From Candidatus Shapirobacteria bacterium (lineage in GTDB: Bacteria > Patescibacteriota > Microgenomatia > UBA12405): 64,000 nt of DNA. The first letter of the stretch is position 1, and every line of letters begins with the position of its first letter. Below, in pieces: positions 14,065-64,000 of the stretch. A model generated the notes under the pieces. That model worked only from the letters and a program-made list of their open reading frames with translations, was not told the DNA's origin and made no database searches. The stretch is from the NCBI GenBank assembly GCA_016188545.1, contig JACPHO010000001.1, forward strand, positions 419,324 to 483,323. The letters are read 5' to 3'. The translations under genes were made by a program, and so were the position numbers.

Positions 14065-14793
14065 ATGTCAGATTACATTCTCGAAAGTCTTTCTGTATTT
14101 TTTCCTTGTTACAACGAAGAAAAAAATATTGAATCAACTTTCAACAAAGCCCTGCCAATATTACAAAAAGTAGCTAAAAACTGGGAAATAATTCTAGTTA
14201 ATGATGGTTCAAAAGATAATACCCTCAAGATCCTTCAAAAACTTAAAAAAGCCCATCCCCAGCAAGTTACGATCGTCAACCATACCCAAAACAGGGGATA
14301 CGGAGCTGCCTTCAAATCAGGTGTCTATACCGCTAAATATCCCTGGATTACCTTTACTGACGCTGATGGCCAGTTTGACTTTAATGAAATACATAAACTA
14401 GTTGCCACTCAGAAAAAAACCAATGCTGACCTGGTCATTGGTTTTTATAACGTCAGACAAGTCCCTGCATTCCGTATTTGGGGTTCAGCAGCCTGGCAAC
14501 TAGCCGTATTTATTCTATTTGGCCTAAGAGTCAAAGATATTGACTGTGGATTTAAGCTTTTTCGCAAAGAAGTCATCGACACCATTCCTCATCTGGAAGC
14601 TGAAAGGGGACCATTTATTTCTTCTGAATTCCTTCTAAAAGCCAAAAAGAAGAAATTTAAAATTGTCGAAATAGGTGTCACTCACTTTAGTCGCCAAGCC
14701 GGTAATGGTACTGGAGCCAACTTTGATGTAGTTTTAGCCGGACTAGTAGATCTTCTTCGTCTTTGGTTCAAAGTCAACTTCACCAAATCATAA
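14065..14793 (+). CDS. GT2 polyprenyl-phosphate sugar synthase (DPM1/GtrB/CsbB-like)
   Basis: CYNEE...NDGSKDNT...TDADGQFD...DCGFKLFRKEV motifs of DPM1-like GT2. Immediately upstream of a GT-C membrane protein. Confidence 0.72.
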   Translation: MSDYILESLSVFFPCYNEEKNIESTFNKALPILQKVAKNWEIILVNDGSKDNTLKILQKLKKAHPQQVTIVNHTQNRGYGAAFKSGVYTAKYPWITFTDADGQFDFNEIHKLVATQKKTNADLVIGFYNVRQVPAFRIWGSAAWQLAVFILFGLRVKDIDCGFKLFRKEVIDTIPHLEAERGPFISSEFLLKAKKKKFKIVEIGVTHFSRQAGNGTGANFDVVLAGLVDLLRLWFKVNFTKS

Positions 14794-14794
14794 A

Positions 14795-16234
14795 ATGATA
14801 TTTTTACGTAAAAATTGGCAAATAATCTTAATTATTCTAATAGCCAGTTTTGTTAGATTTTTCCATCTTTACGATTACGCTGAGTTCCTGGGTGACCAAG
14901 GCCGAGACGTAGTCATTGTTAGAGAGTTTCTCAGACACGGTAATCTTTTCTTTATCGGCCCTCAAACTAGTATTGGCAATATGTATTTGGGACCATTTTA
15001 TTACTATTTGTTTGTCGCCCCCGGACTTATTCTTAGCTGGTTCAATCCAATTGGACCTGCCATTGTAGTGGCTATTCTCGGGGTACTTACTGTCTATCTT
15101 GTCTATACTTACTCCTTAGAATGGTTTGACCATAAAACAGCCATGATCGCCAGTCTTATCTTTGCCCTATCGCCAGTAGTAATTAAATATTCCACATTTT
15201 CGTGGAATCCCAATGTCATGCCTCTGTTTTCGCTATTATTCATCCATTATCTTCTAAAATCTCGATATATTTTAGCCACCATCGCCTTCATAATTTGTCT
15301 CAATGCCCACTTTTTAGCGCTTCTACTTCTACCAGTAGGTTTTATCATTGTTGTTTTCAAAAAACCATTTCCTTACCGTGCCCTAATACTGCCATTTGTC
15401 ATTCTTTTGGCTTCGTTTATACCGCAGTTACTTTTTGATTTTAAACACCAAGGTCAAAATATTAATGCTTTTGTTTCCTTTTTTACCAAAAGAGAAACTA
15501 CTATTAACCTAAAACCATATAAAGCCATACCGCTAATGGTGCCTCTTTTTAATCAAGTTACCACTAGGCTAGTTGCCGGAAAAGACGTAATTGTCGGCTA
15601 CTTTATCAGCACTATCTTTGGCTCAACTTTGATATTTATTCTATACCAGCAGTTTAAAAAACGTAAATTCGACCCTCATTTTCTAATGCTTTCCTCCTGG
15701 CTATTGATTGGTCTAGTAGGATTAGCGTTGTACAAACAGCACATCTATGATCATTACTTTGGCTTTTTGTATCCCGCTATCATTATTCTTTTCGCCTACC
15801 TAATCACACGTTTGCCAAAGTTTTTATCAACTATCATCACCATCTTTGTAGTCATTATATCTTTAGTTCAAAACCCGTTACGCTGGTCACCACCGCGTCA
15901 ATTATGGACAACTCAAGAAATTACTAAGCAAATAGTTGCTTCTTCAGAAAATAAACCATTCAACTTCTCCCTATTAGCAAAAATGAACTATGATCCTGGT
16001 TACCGCTATTTCTTTTCCGAATCAAATGCACCAGTCAGATTACTTCAAGATGAAATAACCGAACAACTCTTTGTCGCTTGTGAGCCTTTTCAAATGGACT
16101 GTAACCCCATCAATAACCCTGAGTGGGGGATAGCTGCCTTTGGCTGGGCTAAAATTGACAAAGAGTGGGAAGTGAATGGAATAAAAATATTCCGTTTAGT
16201 CCACAACCAAACAGGTGAAAAAGTAATAAATTAG
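14795..16234 (+). CDS. Polytopic membrane protein, putative GT-C fold glycosyltransferase (PMT_2-like)
   Basis: ~12 predicted TM segments. First loop FLGDQGRD...GNMYLGPFYYYLF is paralogous to the loop in the 16249..17721 protein. Confidence 0.5.
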   Translation: MIFLRKNWQIILIILIASFVRFFHLYDYAEFLGDQGRDVVIVREFLRHGNLFFIGPQTSIGNMYLGPFYYYLFVAPGLILSWFNPIGPAIVVAILGVLTVYLVYTYSLEWFDHKTAMIASLIFALSPVVIKYSTFSWNPNVMPLFSLLFIHYLLKSRYILATIAFIICLNAHFLALLLLPVGFIIVVFKKPFPYRALILPFVILLASFIPQLLFDFKHQGQNINAFVSFFTKRETTINLKPYKAIPLMVPLFNQVTTRLVAGKDVIVGYFISTIFGSTLIFILYQQFKKRKFDPHFLMLSSWLLIGLVGLALYKQHIYDHYFGFLYPAIIILFAYLITRLPKFLSTIITIFVVIISLVQNPLRWSPPRQLWTTQEITKQIVASSENKPFNFSLLAKMNYDPGYRYFFSESNAPVRLLQDEITEQLFVACEPFQMDCNPINNPEWGIAAFGWAKIDKEWEVNGIKIFRLVHNQTGEKVIN

Positions 16235-16248
16235 TCTTTCTCGACTAG

Positions 16249-17721
16249 TTACTCAGTGTATCCAAGCAATGGATCAAGCTGAGCAGAAGTATTTTTACAG
16301 TCCGCTTCGGTTGCCTTATAGTCACCCGCCACTGGCTTCAAAACTCCAAATCTGCCAAAACTCACCGGCTTTTCATAACGACTAAGTTGCCAAGGAATAG
16401 GAATGTTATATACTGGTACACCCGGTGAACCGGGCTTTACAATATCTACCCCGTAGTACCAAAAGAGATATCTAAACCCAACTCCAACCCCAGGATCCGC
16501 AATGAAGTTAACCGCGATACAGTTATAGTTGTTTTTTTCCTTATCTGCTTTTATATATTCAACTACCTGTCTTCTGTATAAATACGATTGATCTTCATCA
16601 GTTTTAGTAACCAGCCAATAGCTATTAATTACCAGATACAGAAATATCACTAGTATCGCTGCGTTTTTTGTAATAACTTTAGCCAAAAATATTGCCATTA
16701 CCGCAATCACTATTGGTACTGTGTTAGTAAAATAATACTCTGAAACTACTCTTTTTGACACAAACTGTGCGACCATTATAAGTCCAATCCATCCCCACAT
16801 TAAGCCAACTTCCTGCCATTTGATATGTTTTTTCCAAGTTAGGTAACCACAAATTGCGATAAACATCAGCCAGTAAACATAGTTGTTACTGTATTTAAGA
16901 TCAAAAACAATTCGTTGTTGGATCTCCCTACCCGAGGCTTCGATCACCTTTATTAACTTCATTTTACCAGTCGGTGCTCCTATATCCTTTTGAGTTGAGG
17001 CAGCCATGCTCCTAACTTGTGACCAATTATGTTTTAGTTCAAATACAAAGAAAGGAGAAATCGTTATCAAAAATATCAAGATACCTCCCCACACATAACG
17101 ACTAATATTTTTATCAAACAAACTTGAAAATTTATTCTTTCCGACAAAAAATGCCAGAATTGGTAAAGGAACAATCGGCAGCAAAGCTATGTGCAACTGC
17201 CAAATGAACCCAACTAAAAATCCATATATTGGAAGCCATTTCAAATTACCTTTTCCTAATTCCATAATTACTCCCCAAAACCAGATCGACCAGGTTAGGG
17301 TGGGCAGTGTTGGTACTGACCATCTATCAAACCTCGCTATTCCAAACGAAAATGCGTATATTGCTGCAGCTATTAGTCCCGCTCTCATACCCCAATTTCT
17401 TTTAATCACCCAGTAGATACTAACTATATTAAAAATAGAAATTAGTGTTATTGGCACAATAGCCGATAGGGGATTCATCCCAAAAAGTCGATAAAATATC
17501 GCCATGACATAGTAATAAAAACTACCTATAAAAACCCCATCCACACTTGTAATTTGCCCAACTAATCTTTGATGACCGTTAACGATAATGTCTTTAGCAA
17601 TCCACGAATATAGATCCTGATCATGAGCAAAAAAGAAAGATCTTTCAAAAAAAAGCCACCTCATTAATAACCCGGCCCCCAACAAGACTACCCAAATTGG
17701 TACTCTGAACCTAGCTTCCAT
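16249..17721 (-). CDS. Polytopic membrane protein, putative GT-C glycosyltransferase (paralog of 14795..16234)
   Basis: FAHDQDL...GVFIGSFYYYVM loop pattern shared with the 14795 protein. Multi-TM. Confidence 0.5.
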   Translation of the reverse strand: MEARFRVPIWVVLLGAGLLMRWLFFERSFFFAHDQDLYSWIAKDIIVNGHQRLVGQITSVDGVFIGSFYYYVMAIFYRLFGMNPLSAIVPITLISIFNIVSIYWVIKRNWGMRAGLIAAAIYAFSFGIARFDRWSVPTLPTLTWSIWFWGVIMELGKGNLKWLPIYGFLVGFIWQLHIALLPIVPLPILAFFVGKNKFSSLFDKNISRYVWGGILIFLITISPFFVFELKHNWSQVRSMAASTQKDIGAPTGKMKLIKVIEASGREIQQRIVFDLKYSNNYVYWLMFIAICGYLTWKKHIKWQEVGLMWGWIGLIMVAQFVSKRVVSEYYFTNTVPIVIAVMAIFLAKVITKNAAILVIFLYLVINSYWLVTKTDEDQSYLYRRQVVEYIKADKEKNNYNCIAVNFIADPGVGVGFRYLFWYYGVDIVKPGSPGVPVYNIPIPWQLSRYEKPVSFGRFGVLKPVAGDYKATEADCKNTSAQLDPLLGYTE

Positions 17722-17751
17722 AAAACGATAATACCACGTATAATCACTCTT

Positions 17752-18513
17752 ATGACTTCAATCAGTATTGTAATGTCCTGTTACAACGAAGAAAATAATC
17801 TCAAGAGAGGTGTTCTTTCCGAATTAAACGATTACATTTCTAGGTCAAATCTAAACTGGGAAGTTGTTATAACTAATGATCTCTCTACTGACAAAAGCTA
17901 CGAATTATTACTTAGTTTTGCCAAAAAAAACAAAAGCTTTCGAATTTTAAACCTTGAAAAAAAAGGCGGCAAACCAGGTGGTATCTGGAATAGCATCCAA
18001 GCCGCCAAATATCCCTACGTTCTCATGACTGATATTGATCAGTCCACCCCAATTAGTGAATTCGATAAGTTTCTTCCATTTATCAAAGACAGCGATATCG
18101 TCATCGGATCTCGAGGACTTCATCGTAATGGCAATTCGTTTTTAAGGAAAATTGGAGGCCCTGTTTTTCTTACACTACGGCGACTAGTCATTCTTCCCAA
18201 CATTATCGATACCCAGTGCGGCTTTAAACTCCTCAAAACCGAAGTAGCCAAAGAACTGTTTCCCCACCTGCAATTTTTTCAGAAAGAAAAAAACCCGACT
18301 GGTTGGAGAGTTTCTGCATTCGACGTTGAGCTATTATTTATGGCTCGCAAATGGGGTCATCCAATCAAAGAAGTTGAAGTTGACTGGCGTAACGAAGATA
18401 CCAGTAATACCAAGGGAGACGATACTTCCCGCTACAAGAAAGAGTCAGTCCAAATGATTAGGGAAATCATTAGGGTCAAGCGTAACGACATCTTGGGCAA
18501 ATATGAAAAATAA
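17752..18513 (+). CDS. GT2 polyprenyl-phosphate sugar synthase (DPM1/GtrB-like)
   Basis: SCYNEENNL...NDLSTDKS...TDIDQSTP...TQCGFKLLKTEV. Confidence 0.72.
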   Translation: MTSISIVMSCYNEENNLKRGVLSELNDYISRSNLNWEVVITNDLSTDKSYELLLSFAKKNKSFRILNLEKKGGKPGGIWNSIQAAKYPYVLMTDIDQSTPISEFDKFLPFIKDSDIVIGSRGLHRNGNSFLRKIGGPVFLTLRRLVILPNIIDTQCGFKLLKTEVAKELFPHLQFFQKEKNPTGWRVSAFDVELLFMARKWGHPIKEVEVDWRNEDTSNTKGDDTSRYKKESVQMIREIIRVKRNDILGKYEK

Positions 18514-19966
18514 ACTAATACCTGAACTGGGGATAGTTCTATTAATCTCCACTCTCTATTTATTCACACGGGTTCAGTCTCTAACCATTTTACCTGTTTT
18601 TGGCGACGAAGCCATCTATCTTCGCTGGTCACAAATTATCAAAAGCGTCGATACCTTACGTTTTGTTCCCGTAACTGACGGCAAACAACCACTTTTCATG
18701 TGGATCACCGTGGCTTTCTTTAAAATATTTTCTGACCCGTTATTCTCAGGACGCTTATTATCTGTTTTTTCCGGACTATTAAACTTACTCAGTCTTTATT
18801 TTATTGGCCGGTTTTTTATATCTCGAAAAGTAGCCATTATCTCTTCGATTGTTTACCTCATATTACCTTTTACATTTTTTTTCGACAGACTTTCTCTTCC
18901 CGACAGCCTTTTGTCGGCCCTGGGTTCACTGTCCTTATTATTTAGTATTTTACTAGCCAAGTATCCTCGGCTTGATCTAGCCATGATCTTAGGAATAATT
19001 CTTGGTTTATCTTGGCTGACTAAGTCACCGGCGATATATTTTATAACTTTGTCAGCCTTCACTTTTATTCTCTACAATCCTAAAAACATTAAAAAAATCT
19101 ACCTACCAGCTGTTTCAGTCGTGTTCTCATTTGTAATCTACAACATTCTCCGACTTGGTCCTCAGTTTTCGCAGATTAATATTAGAAACCGTGACTATGT
19201 TTGGGGAATTTCTGATATAATCTCGCACCCACTCGATCCTTTTATTCCCCACCTTCGAGACTTATTTGTTTTGTATTCACAATATATTTCTATTCCTTTA
19301 TTAATTGTTTCACTACTGGGAATTTTAATTTATCGCCAAAAACTAAATCACAAAATATTTTTCATTCTTTTATCCTGGTGGGTTCTCCCACTTGTAGCCA
19401 ACATGATGTTTGCCAAAGTTTTCACTGGTAGGTACATTCTTTTCACCGTTCCACCTCTAATCATTCTCATGTCCATCGGACTAAGTCAGTTTAAATTGTC
19501 ACTAAAATATACACTCGTCGTTCTTACAGTACTATGTACTCCCGGACTTATGTTTATTTGGAACATGTCAACCAACCCATTCATAGTCAAGCTCTATAGC
19601 ACTGAAAGTGGTTATGTCTCAAGCTGGACATCGGGCTGGGGGATTCAGGAAGCTTCCACTTATCTTATTAGTCGTTCACACAGTGCCAACGTCATTGTTG
19701 GTACCGAAGGCTATTTTGGCACTCTCCCCGACGGACTTCAAATCTACACAAACCAAATACCTCAGCTTACTGTCTTCGGTGTGGGACTAGATCTAACTTC
19801 AGTTCCTGAAAAACTTATTGATGCTCGTAATCACGGAGACGAAGTCTATATGTTATTTAACCGTTCCCGACTAAAACTCACCCCAAGTGATTCATCTCTG
19901 CTCACAAAAGTATCCTCCTATTCCAAGCCGGATGGAGATGAACTACTATTATTAAAGCTAAACTAA
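18503..19966 (+). CDS. ArnT/PMT-family GT-C membrane glycosyltransferase (GT39/GT83-like)
   Basis: First periplasmic loop FGDEAIYLRW has the ArnT/PMT DE signature. Multi-TM N-terminal domain plus a C-terminal soluble region. Confidence 0.6.
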   Translation: MKNKLIPELGIVLLISTLYLFTRVQSLTILPVFGDEAIYLRWSQIIKSVDTLRFVPVTDGKQPLFMWITVAFFKIFSDPLFSGRLLSVFSGLLNLLSLYFIGRFFISRKVAIISSIVYLILPFTFFFDRLSLPDSLLSALGSLSLLFSILLAKYPRLDLAMILGIILGLSWLTKSPAIYFITLSAFTFILYNPKNIKKIYLPAVSVVFSFVIYNILRLGPQFSQINIRNRDYVWGISDIISHPLDPFIPHLRDLFVLYSQYISIPLLIVSLLGILIYRQKLNHKIFFILLSWWVLPLVANMMFAKVFTGRYILFTVPPLIILMSIGLSQFKLSLKYTLVVLTVLCTPGLMFIWNMSTNPFIVKLYSTESGYVSSWTSGWGIQEASTYLISRSHSANVIVGTEGYFGTLPDGLQIYTNQIPQLTVFGVGLDLTSVPEKLIDARNHGDEVYMLFNRSRLKLTPSDSSLLTKVSSYSKPDGDELLLLKLN

Positions 19967-19967
19967 T

Positions 19968-21659
19968 ATGTTCACCCGCCTCAAGCCACTAATAATCCTG
20001 CTAGTTCTAATAATCCCCAGTATATCTTTCTTTTTTAAACCAGGCGTTTATTGGAACATGCACGATGATATGCAGCTTATTCGACAGTTAGAAATGGAAA
20101 AATGCATCCTCGACGGACAAATTCCTTGTCGTTGGACACCTGACCTTGGCTACGGTTACGGATACCCCTTGTTCAACTTCTACCCACCACTCCCATATTT
20201 TGTTGGTGAGGTGTTTCGAGTATTAGGTTTTTCATTTATATCCACTATCAAACTAACCGCCGCTCTCCAATTCATTGTCGCCGCCTTAGGAATGTATTTA
20301 CTTGTCACTTCTATTTTTGGACCCATCTCCGGACTCGTAGCTTCGCTTCTATACAATTACGCACCGTATCACTCTGTAAACGTTTATATAAGAGGAGCAA
20401 TGAACGAAGCCTGGGCAGCAACATTTTTCCCTTTTATCTTCTACTTTGGACGCCTTGCAATCATCAAAAAAAATCTTTTCTCCCACCTTCTCCTAACCCT
20501 TTCCTATAGTCTATTACTCCTATCTCACAACCCTATGGCGCTTACATTCAGTCCGTTTTTGGGTATCTGGCTACTTTACTGGCTTATCAGCAGTTATGGC
20601 TTTACCAAAGAAACTTTTCTTAGGACTTTTACACTCGGCATATCACTTATTTTTTCAGTTTTAATTTCCGGATTCTTCACCTTCCCAGTCCTATTTGAAT
20701 CTAAAATGGTGCAAATAGAATCCATGTTTCAAAACTACTACCACTTCTCAGTCCATTTTGTCTCTTTTTATCAATTATTTATTAGCAATTTTTGGGGCGA
20801 TGGGCCATCGGTTTGGGGGACTACCGATGGAATGTCATTTTCAGTTGGGTACCTCCATTGGGGTATTGCTCTAATTTCCTTACTTCTAGTATTTTTTAAT
20901 TATCTAAAAACTCGTCGCATCACCTGGCTACCAATCATATTATTTATCGCCTCCTTTTTTAGCATATTCTTAGTCCATGAGCGATCCACACCTATTTGGA
21001 GCGTTATAGGTATCATCCAAAAAGTCCAGTTCCCATGGCGTTTTCTAAACATCTCAGCATTTCTACTGTCCCTACTTGCCGGCACTGTCATTTCACTACT
21101 CCCTCAAAAACCACACATTCGACTTTTTAGTTTATTCACCATCACTCTGCTCATATTTGCTTTATATCAGCCATTATTTACACCTGTCACTTCCGGGCCT
21201 ATAAACGATGACCAGAAATTCGCAGGTAAAGCCTGGGTAAATCAAGTTACCGGAGGTATCTACGATTATCTACCCAAAACTGCTCTTACAGCAGCTAAAG
21301 CACCAGCAAAAGAATATGTTGATGAAATCAACCTCCTTCCAGATGAATATACGTTATCTGGTCAAAAGAAAGGTACTGACTGGATGTTTTTTAATACTAG
21401 CCTAAAAAAACCAGCTAAAGTTACCTTACCTGTTCTTTACTTTCCAAACTTTGTTTTACTCGTTGACAACATCACTACAAGCATCAGCCCTGAATCATCC
21501 CTCGGAAGAATTACTTTTGAATTAACTCCCGGAGATCATCAAGTATATCTAAAACTTCATGACACTCCTGTTAGAACTACCTCTAATATTTTATCCTTAT
21601 TTTCCATACTTCTTTTTTCAAGTCTACTGTTCACCACCCTATGGAAATCCAAGAAGTAG
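19968..21659 (+). CDS. Large polytopic membrane protein, YfhO-like/GT-C candidate (paralog of 41777..43360)
   Basis: N-terminal signature MHDDMQLIRQLEMEKCILDGQIPCRWTPDLGYGYGYPLFNFYPPLPYF is shared with the 41777 protein. ~13 TM segments and a C-terminal domain. Confidence 0.5.
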   Translation: MFTRLKPLIILLVLIIPSISFFFKPGVYWNMHDDMQLIRQLEMEKCILDGQIPCRWTPDLGYGYGYPLFNFYPPLPYFVGEVFRVLGFSFISTIKLTAALQFIVAALGMYLLVTSIFGPISGLVASLLYNYAPYHSVNVYIRGAMNEAWAATFFPFIFYFGRLAIIKKNLFSHLLLTLSYSLLLLSHNPMALTFSPFLGIWLLYWLISSYGFTKETFLRTFTLGISLIFSVLISGFFTFPVLFESKMVQIESMFQNYYHFSVHFVSFYQLFISNFWGDGPSVWGTTDGMSFSVGYLHWGIALISLLLVFFNYLKTRRITWLPIILFIASFFSIFLVHERSTPIWSVIGIIQKVQFPWRFLNISAFLLSLLAGTVISLLPQKPHIRLFSLFTITLLIFALYQPLFTPVTSGPINDDQKFAGKAWVNQVTGGIYDYLPKTALTAAKAPAKEYVDEINLLPDEYTLSGQKKGTDWMFFNTSLKKPAKVTLPVLYFPNFVLLVDNITTSISPESSLGRITFELTPGDHQVYLKLHDTPVRTTSNILSLFSILLFSSLLFTTLWKSKK

Positions 21660-41775: not shown

Positions 41776-41776
41776 A

Positions 41777-49001: not shown

Positions 49002-49002
49002 C

Positions 49003-51930: not shown

Positions 51931-51961
51931 TTTTATACTCCTATAAATATAGTATTAGTTT

Positions 51962-56686: not shown

Positions 56687-57792
56687 AAACTATCCTCCAC
56701 ATCACTCCATTTTTCCACCCCAATATTGGAGGGGTCGAAACTCATCTAGACGACCTTACCTATGAACTACACAAAAGGGGATACAAACAGATTGTTCTTA
56801 CTTATTCACCACTATCAACCATTGTTCCCTATCAAAAATCAGAGTTGTCGACCAACTTACTCATTCATCGTTTTTACCTACCTGGTCACAATTTATTTCA
56901 TTCTCTCGAAAAATTTCCTCTATTAAATTTTTTATACATCACCCCTTGTTTACTTTTTCACTCCCTTATTTGGCTTTTGGTCAATCACCCTCACATCGAC
57001 ACCATCCATTCTCACGGTCTAAACTCCGCTCTAATCGGCAATATTATAAAAAAATTCCTGAGAATTCCCAAACATATCACCTCTATCTACTCTACCTATG
57101 ACAATGTTCCCTTAAATTCAACTACTACAAAATTATTTGTCCACATTCTCAACAATACCGACAAAGTTCTTACTCAGTCAGACCAATCAGTTATACAACT
57201 CAGAAATTTAGGAGTTATCAAAAATAAAATCGCCAGATATTATCATTGGATTGATATTACACGCTTTAAACCAATTCCAAAAAAATCATCCAAATTTTCT
57301 GTATTATTTATCGGTCGTCTAATTCCTCAAAAAAACTCCATAACTCTTGCCACATTAGCCCCAGAATTTACTCAGATAAGATTTGATTTTATCGGTACCG
57401 GTCCTGAATTAGAAAATCTCAAAACTTTAGCCAAAAAATATTCCAATATAAATTTAATTGGCGATGTTCCTTATAAAAACTTGCCACAGTTTTATCAACA
57501 AGCAACTGTTTTTTGTATGCCCTCTACCTATCACGAAGGCTGGGGTAGGGTACTTGCCGAATCAGTTGCCTGTGGCACCCCCGTGATTTGTTCAAACTTA
57601 GGCGGCACCACTGAAGCCGTCGACAGTTCTGTAGCAATTATAGTACCTCCCACTTCAGATCATTTCAAAAAATCCATCAAAAAACTATTTGAAAATCCGT
57701 CCCAACTCCGAAAACTTAGATACAATTGCCATACATACGCCAAAAAACACTATTCCTCAGATAATGTTACTTACATCACCCGACACTATTAA
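56674..57792 (+). CDS. Glycosyltransferase family 4 (GT-B)
   Basis: EGWGRVLAESVACGTPVI motif. N-terminal HITPFFHPNIGGVETH. Confidence 0.72.
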   Translation: MASIKTILHITPFFHPNIGGVETHLDDLTYELHKRGYKQIVLTYSPLSTIVPYQKSELSTNLLIHRFYLPGHNLFHSLEKFPLLNFLYITPCLLFHSLIWLLVNHPHIDTIHSHGLNSALIGNIIKKFLRIPKHITSIYSTYDNVPLNSTTTKLFVHILNNTDKVLTQSDQSVIQLRNLGVIKNKIARYYHWIDITRFKPIPKKSSKFSVLFIGRLIPQKNSITLATLAPEFTQIRFDFIGTGPELENLKTLAKKYSNINLIGDVPYKNLPQFYQQATVFCMPSTYHEGWGRVLAESVACGTPVICSNLGGTTEAVDSSVAIIVPPTSDHFKKSIKKLFENPSQLRKLRYNCHTYAKKHYSSDNVTYITRHY

Positions 57793-58412
57793 ACTTTGCT
57801 TGCCTCAATATACAAACCCAGCTCTTGGTGAATCGGTAAGTCAAGAATATCAACATCCTTCATCGAGCTTTTTCTGTATGCCGAATTTTTTATTTTAGTA
57901 AACCCAACTTTATTAATCAGTCGACTAAGGTTTTCAAAATCATACATCCATTGGTGACCTCTGATTGCCGATTTACCAAGACCCATGTTTTTGTCTTTAT
58001 CAAATCCATAAAACTCTCTACAAAAAACATCCGCGTCACCATTTTTTAAGTATTTATCCATTATCTTTTTTAGGTCTGGGACAACCAAACGAATTTTTCC
58101 ATTTTGTTTCAGTACCCGCAAACACTCTTTTAAGAGTTCCTCGGCTTCATATTTTTCAAGATGCTCTAAAAAATTTGAACTATAAATCCAATCAACACTA
58201 TTTGCCATTAAAGGAATTCCTTTTCGAAGATCATGTAATACTACTTCCCTCCAATCTCTTTGATAACTCTTGTCAAGAATACCCAACGACACCAATAATC
58301 TTCGTAATAGTGGAATCTTAGCCAAAAATGGCAACCATCCCCAGTCATAGTTAATCCACCCCTGTACCCCGTCTGGCCCCGAACCCAAGTTAATTCTCAC
58401 TTCCCCTTTCAT
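57789..58412 (-). CDS. Class I SAM-dependent methyltransferase (Methyltransf_11/23-like)
   Basis: LKQNGKIRLVVPD and an overall ~200 aa Rossmann-fold MT pattern. Confidence 0.55.
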   Translation of the reverse strand: MKGEVRINLGSGPDGVQGWINYDWGWLPFLAKIPLLRRLLVSLGILDKSYQRDWREVVLHDLRKGIPLMANSVDWIYSSNFLEHLEKYEAEELLKECLRVLKQNGKIRLVVPDLKKIMDKYLKNGDADVFCREFYGFDKDKNMGLGKSAIRGHQWMYDFENLSRLINKVGFTKIKNSAYRKSSMKDVDILDLPIHQELGLYIEASKV

Positions 58413-58431: not shown

Positions 58432-59625
58432 ATGTCTCTTCCCAAGCTTCTCGTAGTCTGCCACACCAATTTGGGTACCAGCCTCAGCGGAGGAGACAGG
58501 ATTTTTCTAAAACTTATCAAATATTGGCAAAAGTATTTTGAAATAACCGCCCTAGCATCCCCAGAAGCCAAAAAACTTATTCAAAGAAATAAGTTGAATA
58601 TACATATCATCAGTACTACCCATGTCCCAACAATCACTAATTTATCGACTTTCCACTTAGTCCTACACCATACCATTAGATTCCTGACCGCGATTACTTT
58701 CTGTCTTACTCACCCTCCTCTTTTCCAAAAACACACCCACGTCTACACATCTTCTGATTTTTACGGTGACTTTACTTTCGGATTCTTATCCAAATTATTT
58801 AATGGCAAAATTACTTGGTATTGTGGTTACTATCTTTTAGCCCCATTTCCAACAGATACCAATTCTCCTTACCTCACCAACCACCATCCAATTCGTGGAC
58901 TTATCTACTACTTAGCCCAAAGACCAACCATTCTACTTGCTCGACTATTAGCAGATTATGTATTTGTCACTTCCAAACCAGATATTGTCCCATTTAAAAA
59001 TAACCGGTTACCTTCATCAAAAATTATTATCGTCCAGGGCGGTGTCTACATCCCTACCAGCAAAACTATCAAAACACTTCTACCCATTACCAAGAGGGCA
59101 TATGACGGATTTTACCTTGGTCGTCTCCACAACCAGAAAGGTGTTATGGAAATGATCGATATCTGGTCTTTAGTTACCAAAAAAATACCCGCAGCTCGTT
59201 TAGTCATCGTCGGTGACGGAGAGTTAATGTCCCAAATGACCCAGAAAATTGATGCATTAAAACTTCAAAAAAATATTAATGTCATCGGTTTTTTGGTTGG
59301 TCCCAAAAAATTTGCTCTCATCAAAAATAGTAAAATAGTTCTTCACCCTGCCACCTATGACAGTGGGGGAATGGCCGCAGCAGAAGCCATGGCATGGGGA
59401 CTTCCTGGTGTCTCTTTTGACCTCCCATCGCTAAAGACATACTATCCCAAAGGCATGGTCAAAGTACCACTTTCAGATCTAAACAAGTTTGCCAACTTAG
59501 TCGTCAAACTTTTGACAAATAAAGAGTTCTACAAAAAACATTCCCACGACGCCCGGGATCTAACTATTGAAAATTGGAACTGGAAAACCCGGTTTGACAA
59601 TATCTACAAAAAAATCTCAGTGTAA
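58432..59625 (+). CDS. Glycosyltransferase family 4 (GT-B)
   Basis: GGMAAAEAMAWGLPGV motif. GRLHNQKG. Confidence 0.7.
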   Translation: MSLPKLLVVCHTNLGTSLSGGDRIFLKLIKYWQKYFEITALASPEAKKLIQRNKLNIHIISTTHVPTITNLSTFHLVLHHTIRFLTAITFCLTHPPLFQKHTHVYTSSDFYGDFTFGFLSKLFNGKITWYCGYYLLAPFPTDTNSPYLTNHHPIRGLIYYLAQRPTILLARLLADYVFVTSKPDIVPFKNNRLPSSKIIIVQGGVYIPTSKTIKTLLPITKRAYDGFYLGRLHNQKGVMEMIDIWSLVTKKIPAARLVIVGDGELMSQMTQKIDALKLQKNINVIGFLVGPKKFALIKNSKIVLHPATYDSGGMAAAEAMAWGLPGVSFDLPSLKTYYPKGMVKVPLSDLNKFANLVVKLLTNKEFYKKHSHDARDLTIENWNWKTRFDNIYKKISV

Positions 59626-59710: not shown

Positions 59711-61159
59711 CTATGCTGTCATCGCCCGATAATACGCTTTCCCAAATGCAATTAGCTTTACCCCAAACGAGTTCCAACCATCTCGCCGAACAATCTCCAT
59801 AACCGTCTCTGCCACCCCCCTTCTTCTGACTCTAGTCTTTAAATAAAGCCAAGCAGCTTTTGGCAAGTTACTCTCAATATCTCGTTTCTTGTAGTCAGGG
59901 TATTCATAGACAGCTGTATTCCCATTGTATTTTCTCCAATCATCGGTCAACAGATTTCCCCGACTCTTCAATAAGTTATAAAAAGGTGTCCCTGGCTGAG
60001 GTGTGCACACCGATGCCTGAAAATCCCACAGCAGCCCTTCTTTTGTTAATTTCTCTATCAAATCCAATGTCTTCCCATCCTCTGTCAGGTTCGAATCAGG
60101 AGAACCAAATGTAAATGTTGCATACATTCTCATCCCCACTTTCTTAGCCATCTTAAGAACTTCAATAATTCGGTCAACATTCACATTTTTTACCATTCCT
60201 AGGGCCGTCTTTACCGATGCTGTCTCAATCCCAATTCTAATTTTGTAATAACCAGCCTTTCTCATCATGGTCAGCATTTCCTCATCGAAAGTCCAATACC
60301 CACACATGGCATCATACTTTAGATCCTGCAATCCATTATCAATTATGGCTTGACACAGTTCCATGACAAACTTTTTGTTCGAATTATGATTTTCTTCATC
60401 AAAGAAAATCCCATCCATTTCCGGATATTTATTCTTAAGATATTTAATTTCATCGATTACATTTTGAACTTCTCGGACTCTAAAATTTGGTTTGCCATAA
60501 TAAGTTTGTCGAGCTACACAAAAGTTACAATTCATCGGACACCCACGGGTTGCAAAGAACTCAATTTCCTTATAGTCACAACCGCCAATTCGGGTATAGT
60601 TCATCCGACTGATATCATCGTCCTCAGGAAAGGGGAGTGTGTGTACATCTAAAAGTTCCTTTACTGGGTTAGGATAAATTCCGTCAATTGTTTTCGGCTT
60701 TTCACCACTAACCAGCTTGACTACAGCCGGTTCGTATTCCCCAGTTGCCACGTAGTCGACACCATCAGCCAACACTTCTTTTGGAAAAGCAGTCGGATGT
60801 TGACCACAAAAAATAATTTTTGTACCGTACTTTTCCTTAAACTTAAGAGCAAATCTAAGATCGTATTTATAGACAACCGATGATGTTTCAACCACCAGAT
60901 AATCAGGCATAAACTTTTTATACTTCTCAAAATATTCCTCGGCTGTTAGTTCTTCATAATTCCCATCTACCATTTTCACTTCCAAGTCTTTGTTTTGCTT
61001 TAACATCGATGACAGATATCCTAGCTCGTATGGATAAAAGTTAAACGATTTGGTTTTTCCAACACAAGTCGACCATCGAGAAGGAAATAAAATGTAATGA
61101 TTTCCATCATCATCTTTACCTACAGAGTTCGCTATCAACACTTTTGTCCTGGATTTCAT
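59711..61159 (-). CDS. B12-binding domain radical SAM protein (canonical CxxxCxxC)
   Basis: ATRGCPMNCNFCVAR. N-terminal cobalamin-binding-like domain. 482 aa. Confidence 0.75.
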   Translation of the reverse strand: MKSRTKVLIANSVGKDDDGNHYILFPSRWSTCVGKTKSFNFYPYELGYLSSMLKQNKDLEVKMVDGNYEELTAEEYFEKYKKFMPDYLVVETSSVVYKYDLRFALKFKEKYGTKIIFCGQHPTAFPKEVLADGVDYVATGEYEPAVVKLVSGEKPKTIDGIYPNPVKELLDVHTLPFPEDDDISRMNYTRIGGCDYKEIEFFATRGCPMNCNFCVARQTYYGKPNFRVREVQNVIDEIKYLKNKYPEMDGIFFDEENHNSNKKFVMELCQAIIDNGLQDLKYDAMCGYWTFDEEMLTMMRKAGYYKIRIGIETASVKTALGMVKNVNVDRIIEVLKMAKKVGMRMYATFTFGSPDSNLTEDGKTLDLIEKLTKEGLLWDFQASVCTPQPGTPFYNLLKSRGNLLTDDWRKYNGNTAVYEYPDYKKRDIESNLPKAAWLYLKTRVRRRGVAETVMEIVRRDGWNSFGVKLIAFGKAYYRAMTA

Positions 61160-61161
61160 TG

Positions 61162-62004
61162 TTAAATCTTACCACTTTTTCCCTCAACCTCAACTACTCC
61201 ATGTTGAGCCACTAAGACCGAAAAGATCCAAAGTATTGGGATAGTTATAGTTTGAAATACAATCATTGTTGGAATAGTTAGTTTAAACCCAAACTTCGAC
61301 AATATTGAGTAGCCCATCACCTGACGATATTCACCAAAATAATTTCTGCTCTTAATATCTTTAAAACCTACATCTTCAAACATCTTGAGTAGACCCGCTT
61401 CACTAAACAAAGTCTGATGATTCGGATAATCCAAATGGTACCAATTAGCACCCGCCAATTTTGCCTCCCACGACTCAACATTTGGCACCCTGACAACTAG
61501 TCTACCCGTAGGTGATAATATCCCTAAAATTTTTCTAATATATTCTGCTGGTTTTTCGATATGTTCCAAAACATGATACATCACCACCAACTCAAACTTT
61601 TCTTTAACTTTATCAATATCGTCAAACAGATGATCTTTTCCTAAGACGTTTTCTATTTGCCTCCTGGCATACTTTGACTTTTCTACACCAAAGACCCGAT
61701 ATCCCATAGATTTAAGAGCTTTTAAAAATTTACCTTCACCAAAACCAATTTCTAAAACCTTATCATTTTTTGACAAACTAAGAGTTTGATATCTATCCCA
61801 AAATGCGAATTTGTCAACAATATTCATTAGCCATCCACTTTTACTCCTACCATAATATTCCTTATCATAGACACTTTTCACCACACCGCTCATCGACACA
61901 CTTCTACACTGTAAGCACTCCACAAAACTTGAATCTATCTTCCACTGACGAGTATTATCTGACTCACATACCAGACATTTTCTTTGCTTCTTTTGTGTAG
62001 CCAT
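61162..62004 (-). CDS. Class I SAM-dependent methyltransferase with N-terminal CxxC-x14-CxxC zinc ribbon
   Basis: CLVCESDNTRQWKIDSSFVECLQC, followed by VLEIGFGEGKFLKAL (SAM-binding motif I). Start chosen at MATQKK; the ORF-track start at 62022 is an alternative. Confidence 0.6.
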   Translation of the reverse strand: MATQKKQRKCLVCESDNTRQWKIDSSFVECLQCRSVSMSGVVKSVYDKEYYGRSKSGWLMNIVDKFAFWDRYQTLSLSKNDKVLEIGFGEGKFLKALKSMGYRVFGVEKSKYARRQIENVLGKDHLFDDIDKVKEKFELVVMYHVLEHIEKPAEYIRKILGILSPTGRLVVRVPNVESWEAKLAGANWYHLDYPNHQTLFSEAGLLKMFEDVGFKDIKSRNYFGEYRQVMGYSILSKFGFKLTIPTMIVFQTITIPILWIFSVLVAQHGVVEVEGKSGKI

Positions 62005-62845
62005 CTGATTTCCACTTAACAACTAACCACTGCATAATTATGTTCGGATAATTGTCAGTTGTTTTAACTATCCACTCCATTATATTTCGAATACGATTCA
62101 TTATTCGCCATTCCAATATCAAGATAATAAATCTACCCAATTTATTTTTAATTAAAAAAGGTAAAAAATTCACCGGCAATTTAGATTTTAAATAATATAA
62201 ACCACGTCCGTGACTAATAAATCTGTTTTTAATATCCTCAAATTTTAATTGATGGAAATGCCAAACTTTAGCGTTGCTATCAAAATATAATTTTAGACCA
62301 TTTATTTTGGCACGATAGGCAAACTCAATATCTTCCCACGCTGCTGTCGGAAATTCTTCACAAAACCACAATTCATTTTTTATTACAAAATTTCTCTTCA
62401 TTGAAAAGTTGCACGTCCACAAATAATACCAAGGTATTCTTCGAATTTTATCGGTATATTTAAATCGATAATTAAAATGTAGCCCACTTTGTCCCACCAA
62501 CCATTTCATCGCATTTATTTTGATTGTCTCAGGGTGATTTTCTGTCAATCCTACCATCCCCGCCGATTCTGATTTATGCCTACTATGAAAATCTAAGTGG
62601 GATTTTATAAACCCAATTTCTATAAAACTATCATCATTTAAAAACAGTAAATATTTTCCCCTTGACCTTTTTATCGCTTCATTTCTAGCCTTTGCGGGTC
62701 CATTATTACCAATTACTATTACGATTTCGTCACGATCTTTGTCAATCTGTGCTTCTAAAAGTGCCAGGGCCTCTTTTAATATCTCTTGTCGCTTAAGTGT
62801 CGGGATAATAATACTAAACCTTACTCTCCTCTGGCTACTTTCCAT
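61964..62845 (-). CDS. Glycosyltransferase family 2
   Basis: FSIIIPTLKRQEILKEALALLEAQ...FLNDDS. Confidence 0.68.
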   Translation of the reverse strand: MESSQRRVRFSIIIPTLKRQEILKEALALLEAQIDKDRDEIVIVIGNNGPAKARNEAIKRSRGKYLLFLNDDSFIEIGFIKSHLDFHSRHKSESAGMVGLTENHPETIKINAMKWLVGQSGLHFNYRFKYTDKIRRIPWYYLWTCNFSMKRNFVIKNELWFCEEFPTAAWEDIEFAYRAKINGLKLYFDSNAKVWHFHQLKFEDIKNRFISHGRGLYYLKSKLPVNFLPFLIKNKLGRFIILILEWRIMNRIRNIMEWIVKTTDNYPNIIMQWLVVKWKSDGYTKEAKKMSGM

Positions 62846-64000
62846 ATCTTTAGAATTATTTTTATGACTATCACTACCGGTGCCGAAATAATCGGTGATT
62901 GCTTCATTATAAACGCCGTGCCCAGTAACATTTTTCGAAGTACTATCATGTCAAAAGAGGATAGATACTTAGTCCTCATGTTACTAATATTTCCATTAAA
63001 TTTATTCCAATCAAAATCTTGAATTAGTCCCGACTTCATGGCATCAGCAAACATTTCCGTCCCAGGGTATGGAGTAATTGTGCTGAACCCTACCGATTCT
63101 GGGTTGAGTCTAACCAAATAATCAAATGTGTTTGACATTGTCTTCAAATTATCATCAGGCAACCCGATTATCATCAAAAAGTGAAGTTTCACTCCAACTT
63201 TTTTGGCAACTTCTCGAATATTTTGAATCGATTCCAAAGTCACTCCCGGCTTACCTTGGTAGATAATCAATTCTTGGTCAAGAGTCTCTATCCCCACATT
63301 AATCCCCAAACACCCAGCCTTTTTCATTATTTTTAAAAGCTCTGGAGTTAATACATTTATCCGTGTCTCACACCACCACCTAATCTTCAGTTTATTTTTT
63401 ATTATCAAGTTACAGAGTTCCTCAGTTCTTTTATTATCCAGAGTAAAAGTTGCATCACGAAATAGCACACTTTTAATTCCCAGTTTACTAATTACTTTTA
63501 ACTCTTTAATTACCCGTTCATTACTCATAGCTCTCCAAGTCTTTCCCTGGACTAGGGGATAAGGACAGTAAAATCCACATGGGTAGGGGCAGCCTCGACT
63601 TGTCTGCATAGTCGTCACCACCCCAGGAAGTAGTACATAGCGATACCGGTCAATTTTGGTTTCCTCTCGAGCTGATAGTGGCAGATCATCGAGATTTTTA
63701 ATCCTATCCTCCACAGTCATTGGCGACAGCCCAACTTTTTCATTATTCCAGTAGACACAGCCCGTTCTTCTTTTTCCACTCAAAAATTCTTCGATGGTTA
63801 AGTCACATTCACCAAAAATTATTAACTCAGCCCCAGAATCCTTAAGCACCCTTTCCAATATTTGTTTATAGTTTATCCCGGTCTTAAAAATTACCCGAAG
63901 ACCTGGGATATTTTCCATCAACTTTCTAGCAAATTCTGTATCTTCCGACACGGTTGGTAATGCCAAACCTGAGATTACAACTTCAATCTTTTTGTTTTTT
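62821..64000 (-). CDS. B12-binding domain radical SAM protein, non-canonical Cx3Cx3C spacing; N-terminus runs off the window
   Basis: TSRGCPYPCGFYCPYP ~125 aa into the visible ORF. The upstream residues look like a partial B12-binding domain, so the true start is probably beyond 64000. Confidence 0.6.
   Translation of the reverse strand, partial: KNKKIEVVISGLALPTVSEDTEFARKLMENIPGLRVIFKTGINYKQILERVLKDSGAELIIFGECDLTIEEFLSGKRRTGCVYWNNEKVGLSPMTVEDRIKNLDDLPLSAREETKIDRYRYVLLPGVVTTMQTSRGCPYPCGFYCPYPLVQGKTWRAMSNERVIKELKVISKLGIKSVLFRDATFTLDNKRTEELCNLIIKNKLKIRWWCETRINVLTPELLKIMKKAGCLGINVGIETLDQELIIYQGKPGVTLESIQNIREVAKKVGVKLHFLMIIGLPDDNLKTMSNTFDYLVRLNPESVGFSTITPYPGTEMFADAMKSGLIQDFDWNKFNGNISNMRTKYLSSFDMIVLRKMLLGTAFIMKQSPIISAPVVIVIKIILKIWKVARGE

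Follow-up and report, generated by a model that had tools for sequence, protein, structure and literature searches.

Four groups of described systems come closest to the glycosylation locus considered here, which fills positions 14065-64000 of a 64,000-nucleotide stretch of DNA (hereafter the window) from a Candidatus Shapirobacteria bacterium of the Candidate Phyla Radiation (CPR; Patescibacteria) (GenBank assembly GCA_016188545.1, contig JACPHO010000001.1, positions 419,324 to 483,323 of the forward strand). These are the Gram-positive three-component systems, the assembly of mycobacterial glycans by GT-C glycosyltransferases (GTs), the eukaryotic and archaeal dolichol pathway, and the O-polysaccharide and S-layer loci that depend on ATP-binding cassette (ABC) transporters. 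The enzyme classes of the Shapirobacteria locus are all known and its logic resembles that of all four. What is unusual is the presence of 16 GT-C genes in 34 kb, the lineage-wide conservation beside divisome genes, a GT-C family coupled to the flippase Wzx and the content of radical S-adenosylmethionine (radical-SAM) enzymes. We interpret the locus as a conserved composite envelope-glycoconjugate super-locus of a monoderm CPR bacterium, in which at least three modules lie end to end, and put the probability of this reading at roughly 70%. Searches established the gene identities, whereas we infer what chemistry is carried out, on which substrates, and how the modules are connected. The envelope make-up of CPR bacteria is largely unknown, and their surface is relevant since the cells live attached to hosts. 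Full-text literature searches turned up no paper on the glycosylation machinery of CPR bacteria.

Comparison with described systems

Gram-positive three-component systems consist of a GT2 (CsbB/GtrB), a small flippase (GtcA/GtrA) and a GT-C enzyme (YfhO/GtrC). The Shapirobacteria locus resembles them in that synthase-class GT2 genes stand beside GT-C genes, the latter including a YfhO (30920; genes are named here by their first coordinate) and two YfhO-like proteins, and further in the monoderm envelope and in a LytR-CpsA-Psr (LCP) ligase nearby in the window. It differs in that it lacks a GtrA/GtcA flippase, its GT2s of this class are without membrane helices, and 16 GT-C enzymes are present where each such system has one; genes for a teichoic-acid backbone were not seen.

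To our knowledge, the assembly of lipomannan (LM), lipoarabinomannan (LAM) and arabinogalactan (AG) in mycobacteria and corynebacteria, by Ppm1 with PimE, MptA-C, Emb and Aft enzymes, is the only well-studied bacterial case in which many GT-C paralogues construct a complex extracytoplasmic glycan from sugars linked to polyprenyl phosphate. The structural neighbours of one GT-C-type protein of the window (23074) include AftA, AftB, AftD and PimE. However, the mycobacterial genes are scattered in a genome of more than 4 Mb, whereas the 16 GT-C genes of the window lie in one 34-kb stretch; there is no detectable orthology between the two (identity is around 10%) and no decaprenylphosphoryl-arabinose (DPA) pathway.

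The dolichol pathway comprises the ALG GT4 enzymes, DPM1/ALG5, an RFT1/Wzx-like flippase, the lumenal GT-C enzymes ALG3/9/12/6/8/10 and the transferase STT3/AglB. The WWDYG motif is absent from 23074, and no ALG7/WecA-type primer was found in the window. Fold and logic are shared with this pathway, but not orthology; en bloc transfer in the window is a proposal. Among ABC-dependent loci, those with methylated chain termini include E. coli O8/O9a, the common polysaccharide antigen (CPA) D-rhamnan of P. aeruginosa and the S-layer glycan cluster of Geobacillus. The likeness here lies in the GT4/GT2 and SAM methyltransferase genes and, in relatives, in a GDP-mannose 4,6-dehydratase (Gmd) with a reductase and a Wzm/Wzt-like pair. 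In contrast to those loci, four or five radical-SAM genes are interleaved with the GT genes, the genes for the exporter and the GDP-sugar enzymes are located beyond the window, and neither a Wzt carbohydrate-binding module nor a WbdD-like terminator was identified.

Gene content and organization

The run from 14065 to 64000 is unbroken and comprises 41 open reading frames (ORFs) of at least 100 aa in ~50 kb. Families were assigned by Pfam, NCBIfam, PDB and profile searches of each ORF of at least 100 aa; the Pfam scan took in the 59 non-nested ORFs of the window, eight short ORFs nested in longer ones being excluded. The run encodes 12 GT2 and four GT4 proteins, 17 membrane proteins (16 of the GT-C type and a bitopic protein without a family, 35432 on the minus strand), one Wzx/MOP flippase, four radical-SAM enzymes and three SAM methyltransferases. 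An initial annotation of the window had described a dedicated cell-surface glycosylation locus, unusual in size and in GT-C paralogue content, and the family searches confirmed this. Its counts of one Wzx-like flippase, four radical-SAM enzymes and three methyltransferases were reproduced exactly, and its approximately 16 membrane proteins, mostly GT-C-like, became 17, with 16 of the GT-C type. Its figure of 15 soluble GT2/GT4 enzymes came close: 16 such proteins were found, of which 11 are without a transmembrane (TM) segment.

The widest gap between genes in the run is 85 bp, and the chaining of genes by ATGA-type overlaps, noted from the start, recurs as 1-4 bp overlaps at many junctions; given such tight packing, the genes may reasonably be taken to form a few very long operons. 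Genes lie on the plus strand from 14065 to 33882, on the minus strand from 33861 to 40151, on the plus strand again from 40183 to 57792 and on both strands thereafter. This is the layout first proposed, except that 16249-17721 is a minus-strand gene inside the first plus run. No nucleotide-sugar or housekeeping genes were detected within 14065-64000 in the Pfam and NCBIfam scans of window ORFs. The initial statement that nucleotide-sugar genes are absent thus holds inside the window, but not just past its edge, where a relative (L062) carries Gmd, a GDP-sugar reductase/epimerase and a short-chain dehydrogenase/reductase (SDR). Base composition is even across the window (GC 0.36-0.42, with uniform GC skew), and tRNA and Rfam scans of the window returned nothing. 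Divergent gene pairs at 17721-17752 and 40151-40183 are separated by only 30-31 bp, which is too short for two conventional promoters, so that promoters must be situated inside coding sequence or be unconventional.

Lipid-linked sugar synthases and other soluble glycosyltransferases

Three of the GT2 proteins resemble polyprenyl-phosphate sugar synthases of the GtrB/ArnC/DPM1 type. The first (14065..14793, plus strand; 242 aa; Glycos_transf_2, E 6e-33) has ArnC, GtrB sll0501 and DPMS as its top PDB matches over residues 7-215 (E 1.7e-15 to 5e-13), and ArnC, dolichyl-P hexose transferase and PpgS as its best NCBIfam models, all below cut-off; it is conserved in about 38 Shapirobacteria loci. 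The second (17752..18513, plus; 253 aa; Pfam GT2, E 1e-21) matches GtrB and DPMS best in the PDB, and also ArnC (E 4e-9 to 8e-8), with PgfS as the best NCBIfam model. The third (50154..50966, plus; Pfam GT2, E 2e-22) clusters with the other two and has PpgS and AglJ as its best NCBIfam models. These matches support similarity to GtrB, ArnC and DPM1 at class level only. Both 14065 and 17752 abut a GT-C gene, with a 1-bp gap and an 11-bp overlap, respectively, and these GT2/GT-C pairs are conserved in about 40 genomes; 50154 is followed by a membrane-anchored GT2 (50953). The simplest reading is that the three proteins would make polyprenyl-phosphate monosaccharides for GT-C enzymes, given the similarity to ArnC, GtrB and DPMS, the abutment of GT2 and GT-C genes, the conservation of the pairs and the intact loop-1 Asp of the GT-C proteins. 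Parallels for such a division of labour are the Gtr/CsbB-YfhO systems, LM/LAM/AG assembly in mycobacteria and the lumenal steps of the ALG pathway.

The other nine GT2 proteins and the four GT4 proteins are Leloir-type enzymes, the presumable builders of lipid-linked glycans. A first group of them, all on the plus strand, consists of the GT2 proteins 24756..25712 (Leloir-type; Pfam GT2, E 4.5e-17), 25688..26632 (Glyco_tranf_2_3, E 1.3e-15), 26623..27408 (Pfam GT2, E 1.2e-15), 28576..29451 (E 3.6e-23) and 33073..33882 (E 1.6e-23), together with the GT4 protein 27368..28579 (Glycos_transf_1, E 3.6e-19). The remainder lie further to the right, again on the plus strand but for the last GT2: the GT2 proteins 48084..49001 (E 2.9e-21), 50953..51930 (matches to GT2 and Glyco_trans_2_3), 55643..56686 (E 2e-20) and 61964..62845 (minus; E 4.9e-13), and the GT4 proteins 48982..50157 (Glycos_transf_1, E 1e-19), 56674..57792 (E 2.4e-32) and 58432..59625 (E 5.8e-22). 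A crude hydropathy scan of the 16 GT2/GT4 proteins placed three C-terminal TM segments in 50953 and one hydrophobic peak each in 24756, 55643 and 56674.

GT-C-type membrane proteins

Eight membrane proteins score above Pfam cut-offs for GT-C families: 16249, 18503, 29448, 33861, 43344, 44872 and 46490 with PMT_2/PMT, and 19968 with PTPS_related. Three more (37222, 40183 and 41669) are assigned to GT-C by clear BLAST paralogy to above-cut-off members. At the left end lie 16249..17721 (minus; PMT_2, E 3.9e-10, 40.6 bits), which occupies a variable slot, 18503..19966 (plus; PMT_2, E 1.2e-14), whose synteny is conserved, and 19968..21659 (plus; PF10131, E 7e-8), which is YfhO-like (hhalign 97.8% to YfhO). 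The latter has a paralogue of 36% identity in 41669..43360 (plus; PF10131 weak; hhalign 96.7% to YfhO), the true start of which is probably downstream of the listed one. Another PMT_2/PMT protein, 29448..30920 (plus; PMT_2, E 4.2e-12), precedes the YfhO-family protein 30920..33076 (plus; 718 aa), which has no direct Pfam match and is 100% identical to NCBI HYV64_02695; PF09586 (YfhO) is found in nearly all of its 64 homologues. For 46490 and 59711, too, there are NCBI proteins of 100% identity, and all three belong to a Candidatus Shapirobacteria metagenome-assembled genome (HYV64 locus tags, 563,806-bp contig).

Six GT39-like proteins form a paralogue family: 33861..35438 (minus; PMT_2, E 5e-9; PMT, E 3.5e-6), 37222..38874 (minus; PMT_2 weak at 21.7 bits; BLAST to 44872, 6e-43), 40183..41775 (plus; PMT_2, 25.8 bits; BLAST to 33861, 7e-46), 43344..44921 (plus; PMT_2, E 3.9e-9), 44872..46503 (plus; PMT, E 1.3e-10) and 46490..48094 (plus; PMT_2 and PMT matches). 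With 24-34% identity to one another, they are old paralogues and not recent duplicates. The last of them, 46490, has at least 120 matches, all of at least 56% identity among the matches listed, and those that are named belong to Shapirobacteria or Microgenomates.

The remaining proteins are more divergent. The product of 14795..16234 (plus; 479 aa, ~9 TM segments) has no Pfam match, and was placed by hhalign with 16249 (99.5%) and with the GT39-like family (96%), with a weak TIGR03663/Agl23 match (E 7.6e-5); its loop-1 Asp is conserved. A PIG-M-like protein, 36000..37220 (minus; 406 aa), was recognized by a small profile that matches GPI mannosyltransferase 1 in the PDB (E 1e-4), and conserves N-terminal HPD and YPP motifs; its single-sequence AF2 model was unusable (predicted local distance difference test score, pLDDT, 47). 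The divergent, truncated GT-C-like protein 38871..40151 (minus; 426 aa) aligns by hhalign (95.4%) with columns 277-389 of the GT39-like paralogue alignment and was otherwise without a match in a profile search of PDB sequences and in family scans. It lacks TM1 and aligns only in its C-terminal TM part, so that the loop-1 acidic residue is not represented. The sixteenth GT-C-type protein, 23074, is discussed below. The one membrane protein outside this class, 35432..36016 (minus; 194 aa, TM segments at both ends), gave no family match in Pfam, NCBIfam, PDB or hhalign comparisons, and is retained in the relative L056 at 59% identity.

A crude Kyte-Doolittle scan gave five to nine hydrophobic peaks for each of the 16 GT-C-type proteins. 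The loop-1 Asp (Asp32 in 46490 numbering) is invariant in all ten aligned GT39/PMT_2-like paralogues and stands in an Asp-Glu pair in eight of the ten, and Arg135 is retained in at least nine. With these residues retained, the paralogues look catalytically competent. Judging from family membership and the neighbouring GtrB-like GT2 genes, we infer that they would be GT-C enzymes using polyprenyl-phosphate-linked sugar donors extracytoplasmically. The proposal that most of the membrane proteins might be transporters, which would have undone the first description of the locus, was ruled out by the searches, in which 16 of the 17 proved to be of the GT-C type. Within a very small genome, 16 such genes in 34 kb form a dense paralogue set suited to expression and studies of specificity.

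Wzx and an unannotated GT-C family beside it

The flippase gene (21641..23098, plus; Polysacc_synt_3, E 2.7e-45; NCBIfam MOP flippase, TuaB and O-glycosylation Wzx) is followed directly by 23074..24759 (plus; 561 aa), a member of an unannotated GT-C family that we regard as new. A confident AF2 model of 23074 shows a multi-helix membrane domain and a C-terminal globular domain, i.e. a GT-C fold with an AglB-like C-terminal domain as in the AglB/STT3-type architecture, and the structural neighbours include STT3, AglB, PglB, AftA, AftB, AftD and PimE. The family counts 857 cluster representatives and, with its confident model, is a further target for expression; D44 and H48 are invariant in the family. 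A 43-sequence profile of the family found no match among PDB sequences, and a Pfam scan of 43 members gave only scattered chance-level matches. The WWDYG motif is absent from the 23074 sequence. Since both this motif and a sequence-level match are lacking, assignment of 23074 to the STT3/PglB family of oligosaccharyltransferases (OSTs) was rejected.

Wzx and 23074-like genes are adjacent in the loci of all relatives that reach that far, and in one relative a single protein of 1639 aa (P0353) consists of Wzx, a soluble-type domain and a 23074-like GT-C in that order. On account of this adjacency, the fusion and the OST-like architecture, 23074 is the best candidate for handling the glycan flipped by Wzx. 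In other Microgenomates, among which Daviesbacteria is named (P0320, P0340 and others), proteins of ~1000-1160 aa end in a 23074-like GT-C, which makes up their C-terminal half. The 450-590 aa at their N-terminus are a conserved, single-TM-anchored, mostly soluble domain, for which no Pfam match and no relative in the window were found.

Proposed pathway

In the composite super-locus favoured here, the first module (14.0-24.8 kb), the lineage-wide core, would begin with the two soluble GtrB/ArnC/DPM1-like GT2 proteins loading single sugars on polyprenyl phosphate at the cytoplasmic face. The GT-C enzymes 14795, 16249, 18503 and 19968 would use these lipid-linked sugars on the outer face, while Wzx would export a lipid-linked oligosaccharide and the adjacent 23074 would handle the flipped glycan. 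In the second module (24.8-48.1 kb), five GT2 proteins and one GT4 protein would build a lipid-linked glycan in the cytoplasm, and eleven further GT-C-type proteins (the six GT39-like paralogues, 29448, the YfhO, YfhO-like and PIG-M-like proteins and the truncated form) would extend or decorate an acceptor stepwise outside the membrane. The third module (48.1 to about 73 kb, partly past the window) contains GT2/GT4 proteins, the three methyltransferases and the four radical-SAM enzymes and, in relatives, Gmd, a reductase and a Wzm/Wzt-like exporter. It may produce a methylated, deoxy-sugar-containing polymer by an ABC-transporter-dependent route, in which the radical-SAM enzymes would edit sugar residues by AprD4-like dehydration and TokK-like C-methylation.

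The lipid-linked glycans would leave through Wzx or the ABC exporter and be destined for peptidoglycan, a membrane glycolipid or surface proteins. An LCP ligase gene (9102..10124, plus; LytR_cpsA_psr, E 1e-17) lies upstream of the block, and is kept upstream of ftsEX in relatives. The encoded enzyme might be a partner that acts downstream by linking glycopolymers to peptidoglycan, and its conservation suggests that at least one product of the locus is attached there. In cryogenic transmission electron microscopy, ultrasmall groundwater cells, inferred to be CPR/DPANN and not Shapirobacteria specifically, lacked an outer membrane and bore a periodic surface layer (PMC7906910). Surface proteins are thus also plausible acceptors.

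Several points weigh against this reconstruction. The C-terminal TM helices that GtrB and ArnC possess are missing from the three GtrB-like GT2 proteins (242-270 aa), which also fall far below all NCBIfam equivalog cut-offs (at best 74.8 bits, as compared with 529 for ArnC). Human DPM1 and the catalytic domain of Ppm1 are peripheral, and the three proteins could be so as well. Neither a priming phosphoglycosyltransferase of the WecA/MraY or WbaP type in the window or the ~10 kb beyond it in relatives, nor a Wzy polymerase, a chain-length regulator or an O-antigen-ligase-type enzyme was recognized; the search covered Wzy_C, Wzz, Bac_transf and Glycos_transf_4 in the 59 window ORFs and the L062 flank. 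Wzy proteins are hard to detect by sequence; all polytopic proteins of the run, Wzx aside, have been resolved as GT-C-type. Likewise, no window ORF matched a GtrA/GtcA-type small flippase in the Pfam scans and, with a largest gap of 85 bp, there is no unassigned coding space for such a gene. Three of the four radical-SAM enzymes show only generic class-B similarity, so that they could act on lipids and not sugars. Finally, the region past 64000 is known from relatives and not from the genome of the window, and the division into three modules is drawn from gene classes and depth of conservation.

A related proposal, which we hold tentatively and consider unlikely, is that the locus is a bacterial analogue of the dolichol-type pathway in one gene block, with radical-SAM tailoring of the installed sugars. 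The GT4 and GT2 proteins would assemble a lipid-linked oligosaccharide, Wzx would flip it and the GT-C paralogues would extend it from polyprenyl-phosphate sugars, after which the OST-like family of 23074, with its occasional fusion to Wzx, would transfer the glycan en bloc to surface proteins or the wall. The radical-SAM enzymes would deoxygenate or C-methylate sugars once these are on the lipid-linked or polymeric glycan, which would replace nucleotide-sugar pathways that the reduced genome may lack.

Alternatively, the whole locus could be a protein-glycosylation system, acting by O- or N-glycosylation on S-layer proteins, pilins or other secreted proteins; the product would then be neither a wall polysaccharide nor a lipoglycan. 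In Actinobacteria, the GT39 enzymes act as protein O-mannosyltransferases. The PMT/GT39 matches of the GT-C proteins fit this idea, but PMT_2 also covers ArnT-type lipid and polysaccharide transferases, and YfhO relatives are said to glycosylate teichoic acids. The resemblance of 23074 to STT3, AglB and PglB, including the AglB C-terminal domain, also fits, but is offset by its lack of the WWDYG motif. Further points in favour are a TPR-fused GT-C just past the window edge in relatives, the appearance of PgfS and AglJ, which belong to protein-glycosylation pathways, among the best or near-best NCBIfam matches of the GT2 proteins, and a DUF11 surface-repeat protein (13343..13957, minus; 204 aa; DUF11, E 1.8e-7) conserved at the boundary of the locus. 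The gene of the latter is flanked by those of the M23 peptidase and the first GT2 in nearly all Shapirobacteria loci examined, at 30-82% identity, and its product could serve the glycosylation core as a substrate or partner. On the other hand, the LCP ligase upstream and the exporter of the ABC type speak for polymer products, and sixteen GT-C enzymes exceed what initiation on proteins would need. We regard this explanation of the entire locus as improbable.

Conservation across Shapirobacteria

An FtsX scan of GTDB species representatives yielded 46 loci of the Shapirobacteria/Microgenomates type, some of them labelled otherwise in their records. In essentially every locus that is long enough, the order is FtsX, M23 peptidase, DUF11 protein (minus strand), GT2 (14065), GT-C (14795), a variable slot, GT2 (17752), GT-C (18503), GT-C (19968), Wzx and a 23074-like protein. 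This left module of ~10 kb is found beside ftsEX and the M23 gene in about 40 species-level Shapirobacteria genomes at 50-68% protein identity. The remainder is collinear gene for gene in five independent assemblies (about 87-97%, 74-97%, 50-86% and about 59% identity). A JBAZZE contig (L056; 96% FtsX identity) matches the window gene for gene from 19.9 to 43 kb, and a Logan assembly (L061; 73-97% protein identity) matches it from 36 to 58 kb. A genome of about 1 Mb (L060/L059; 78% FtsX identity) covers about 40-64 kb and beyond, and a second Logan assembly (L068; about 59% identity for the 46490 orthologue) covers 36-59 kb including the minus-strand block. Compared with the closest GTDB relative, mean identity is about 83% for the island proteins and about 87% for the flanking housekeeping proteins. 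No integrase or transposase families were found among the window ORFs by Pfam, and there is neither a tRNA gene nor a GC break. The lineage-wide synteny, together with a divergence similar to that of flanking housekeeping genes, indicates that the locus is a core and not an accessory feature, vertically inherited and with a few variable slots.

The initial annotation had called the system probably variable and proposed a comparison of synteny with related genomes to see whether it is conserved or strain-variable. The comparison speaks for conservation, with variation confined to single genes and small blocks. Slot 16249 is present, absent or replaced among relatives, other membrane proteins stand in for the minus-strand block (33.9-40.2 kb) in L060, an additional B12 radical-SAM gene is found in L059 and L062, L068 is without the FkbM methyltransferase between its two radical-SAM genes, and 27368 and 35432 diverge faster than the rest in L056 (63% and 59% identity). 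Such features would be expected of a strain-variable surface-antigen island, horizontally acquired or fast diversifying, that serves phage evasion or host matching. However, order and content are kept from the relative with 96% FtsX identity down to about 59% identity, the mean divergence is near that of the flanking genes, tRNA genes, GC breaks and matches to integrase or transposase families are missing, and the paralogues are old. The variable-island explanation is thus already largely refuted at the genus and family level, and we give it little credence.

Radical-SAM enzymes and methyltransferases

The right part of the window holds the four radical-SAM genes. The proteins encoded by 51962..53476 (plus; CX4CX2C; Radical_SAM, E 2e-14; B12-binding, 25.8 bits; HpnJ as best NCBIfam model with 134 bits against a cut-off of 578) and 59711..61159 (minus; CX3CX2C; B12-binding, 29.1 bits; HpnJ, 143 bits, below cut-off) each have a B12-like N-terminal domain, which in both falls below the Pfam cut-off of 32.1 bits (E about 1e-5 to 1e-6). 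This cut-off is exceeded only by 54136..55671 (plus; CX3CX2C; B12-binding, 41.1 bits, and Radical_SAM), a probable class B enzyme whose closest PDB match is the B12-dependent methylase TokK (E 1.9e-13). All three show generic class-B similarity (HpnJ/BchE, 105-143 bits against cut-offs of about 480-580). At E<=1e-10, 59711 has 591 homologues, and the named ones include other CPR phyla, Omnitrophica and Acidobacteriota. The three methyltransferases are an FkbM-family protein (53385..54182, plus; Methyltransf_21, E 9e-20; TIGR01444 above cut-off) and two class I SAM methyltransferases, 57789..58412 (minus; Methyltransf_11, E 5e-8) and 61162..62022 (minus; Methyltransf_23, E 6.5e-24). A fifth radical-SAM gene, of 520-522 aa and with a strong B12-binding domain, is present in L059 (8388-9950, minus) and L062 (12756-14324, minus) between the equivalents of 61162 and 59711, which are 2 bp apart in the window.

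The fourth radical-SAM enzyme of the window (62821..64000, minus) is AprD4-like and has its N-terminus cut by the window end; the ORF is open to the edge, and full-length orthologues of 464 aa occur in L059 and L062. It aligns with AprD4 of apramycin biosynthesis (PDB 6FD2) over about 340 residues (9-351; E 5.5e-50), and carries a CX3CX3C motif (CPYPCGFYC, residues 126-134 as numbered from the TTG start at 63966) in place of the canonical CX3CX2C. We take the cluster motif of AprD4 itself to be CX3CX3C as well. The NCBIfam AprD4 model gives 230.7 bits against a cut-off of 500 for a sequence truncated by the window, which makes the protein AprD4-like and not an AprD4 equivalog. AprD4 belongs to an aminoglycoside cluster, whereas 62821 lies in a CPR glycan locus. 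AprD3 is presumably the reductase partner of AprD4, and an SDR gene near the 62821 orthologues of relatives is comparable. Within a glycan locus, a radical-SAM enzyme of the AprD4-like kind is new, and literature searches on radical-SAM enzymes in such loci gave nothing pertinent. The radical-SAM enzymes and methyltransferases, with the Gmd route of relatives, suggest a methylated product rich in deoxy sugars. These radical-SAM enzymes, likewise targets for expression, may be editing sugars within a glycan pathway; such chemistry has until now been described chiefly for the biosynthesis of antibiotics.

A small-molecule or glycolipid cluster from 48-64 kb and beyond, with an aminoglycoside-like or modified-lipid product and radical-SAM enzymes that modify a lipid or natural-product scaffold, would suit the natural-product role of AprD4 and TokK, the HpnJ, HpnR and ladderane-type lipid radical-SAM models that rank high among the NCBIfam matches, and a UbiG-like methyltransferase match. 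But no scaffold genes (cyclitol synthase, aminotransferase, polyketide synthase/non-ribosomal peptide synthetase or hopanoid) were found in this part, which is embedded in GT2/GT4 genes, ends with the Wzm/Wzt-like exporter and Gmd in relatives and is conserved together with the GT-C array. Such a cluster is very unlikely.

Extension of the locus in relatives and soundness of the assembly

In close relatives, the locus extends ~10 kb past the equivalent of the window edge. On the metagenome contig L062, whose AprD4-like enzyme is 94% identical to that of the window, the genes outward from the edge encode the 464-aa radical-SAM enzyme, a 572-aa GT-C with TPR repeats, a CofD/YvcK-like protein, an SDR, an ABC-2 permease and an ABC ATPase. 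Further outward are Gmd (E 6e-154), a second NAD-dependent epimerase/reductase and a DUF115/MptE-like protein. The ABC2_membrane and ABC_tran pair, which is Wzm/Wzt- or TagGH-like, lies about 3.7-5.7 kb past the edge equivalent in L062 and is also present in L059, which has the same layout; it is not in the window. Between the permease and ATPase genes is a small variable slot, occupied by a 118-aa protein resembling 23S-rRNA-intervening-sequence/bAvd proteins in one relative and by an NYN-domain protein in another (4863-5219, minus, in L062; 1108-1623, minus, in L059).

This extension brings the locus to about 60 kb, or roughly 9-11% of the 563,806-bp source contig; a small genome (the main contig of a relative is about 1 Mb) thus gives about 50-60 kb to one glycosylation locus. 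The large share of the genome, the lineage-wide conservation and the place beside cell-division and wall genes argue for a complex surface glycoconjugate as a core trait of Shapirobacteria, and probably an essential one.

An assembly chimera of separate glycosylation loci, which had been named as a possible flaw at the outset, can be dismissed: no point supporting it was found, GC and GC skew are uniform, and every junction recurs in assemblies of relatives (L001/L025, L056, L061, L068, L060/L059 and L062) that are independent in sample and pipeline (NCBI/JGI JBAZZE, Logan SRR22216445 and SRR8925805, NCBI JBAQFH and JGI Ga0172379).

Upstream flank

Positions 1-13957 contain ordinary housekeeping genes according to Pfam, in the order SecA C-terminus, Fic, DHH phosphoesterase, HIT, BipA, C39-like peptidase, cyclophilin, thioredoxin-like protein, class I release factor, LCP ligase, FtsE, FtsX, M23 peptidase and DUF11. 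Neither the Fic-domain gene (783-1751) nor the 104-aa ORF after it (1804-2118) is matched at this place in the closest relative (L025), in which a DHH gene only 27% identical to that of the window comes straight after the SecA gene; the housekeeping region is otherwise syntenic, with 783-2118 as a small variable insertion. The C39-like peptidase, lipoprotein cyclophilin and thioredoxin-like trio (5802-7517) keeps its place between the BipA and release-factor genes in every relative examined, and may be an extracytoplasmic protein-folding or maturation set. Within 7688-9102, a 114-aa ORF without a family match has a 4-bp overlap with the start of the release-factor gene (8029-9102). It is found at 33-80% identity in several relatives and was undetected in L003, L005 and L007. 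A role as the short leader of a prfB with a frameshift is excluded for this ORF, since the release-factor ORF is already full length.

Over the whole window (1-64000), the GC skew of the plus strand is negative in all 2-kb bins (-0.06 to -0.32), and it stays negative within the minus-strand block at 33.9-40.2 kb, so that it is not set by the coding strand. About 80% of the genes are on the plus strand, and the usual skew rule would place most genes of the window on the lagging strand.

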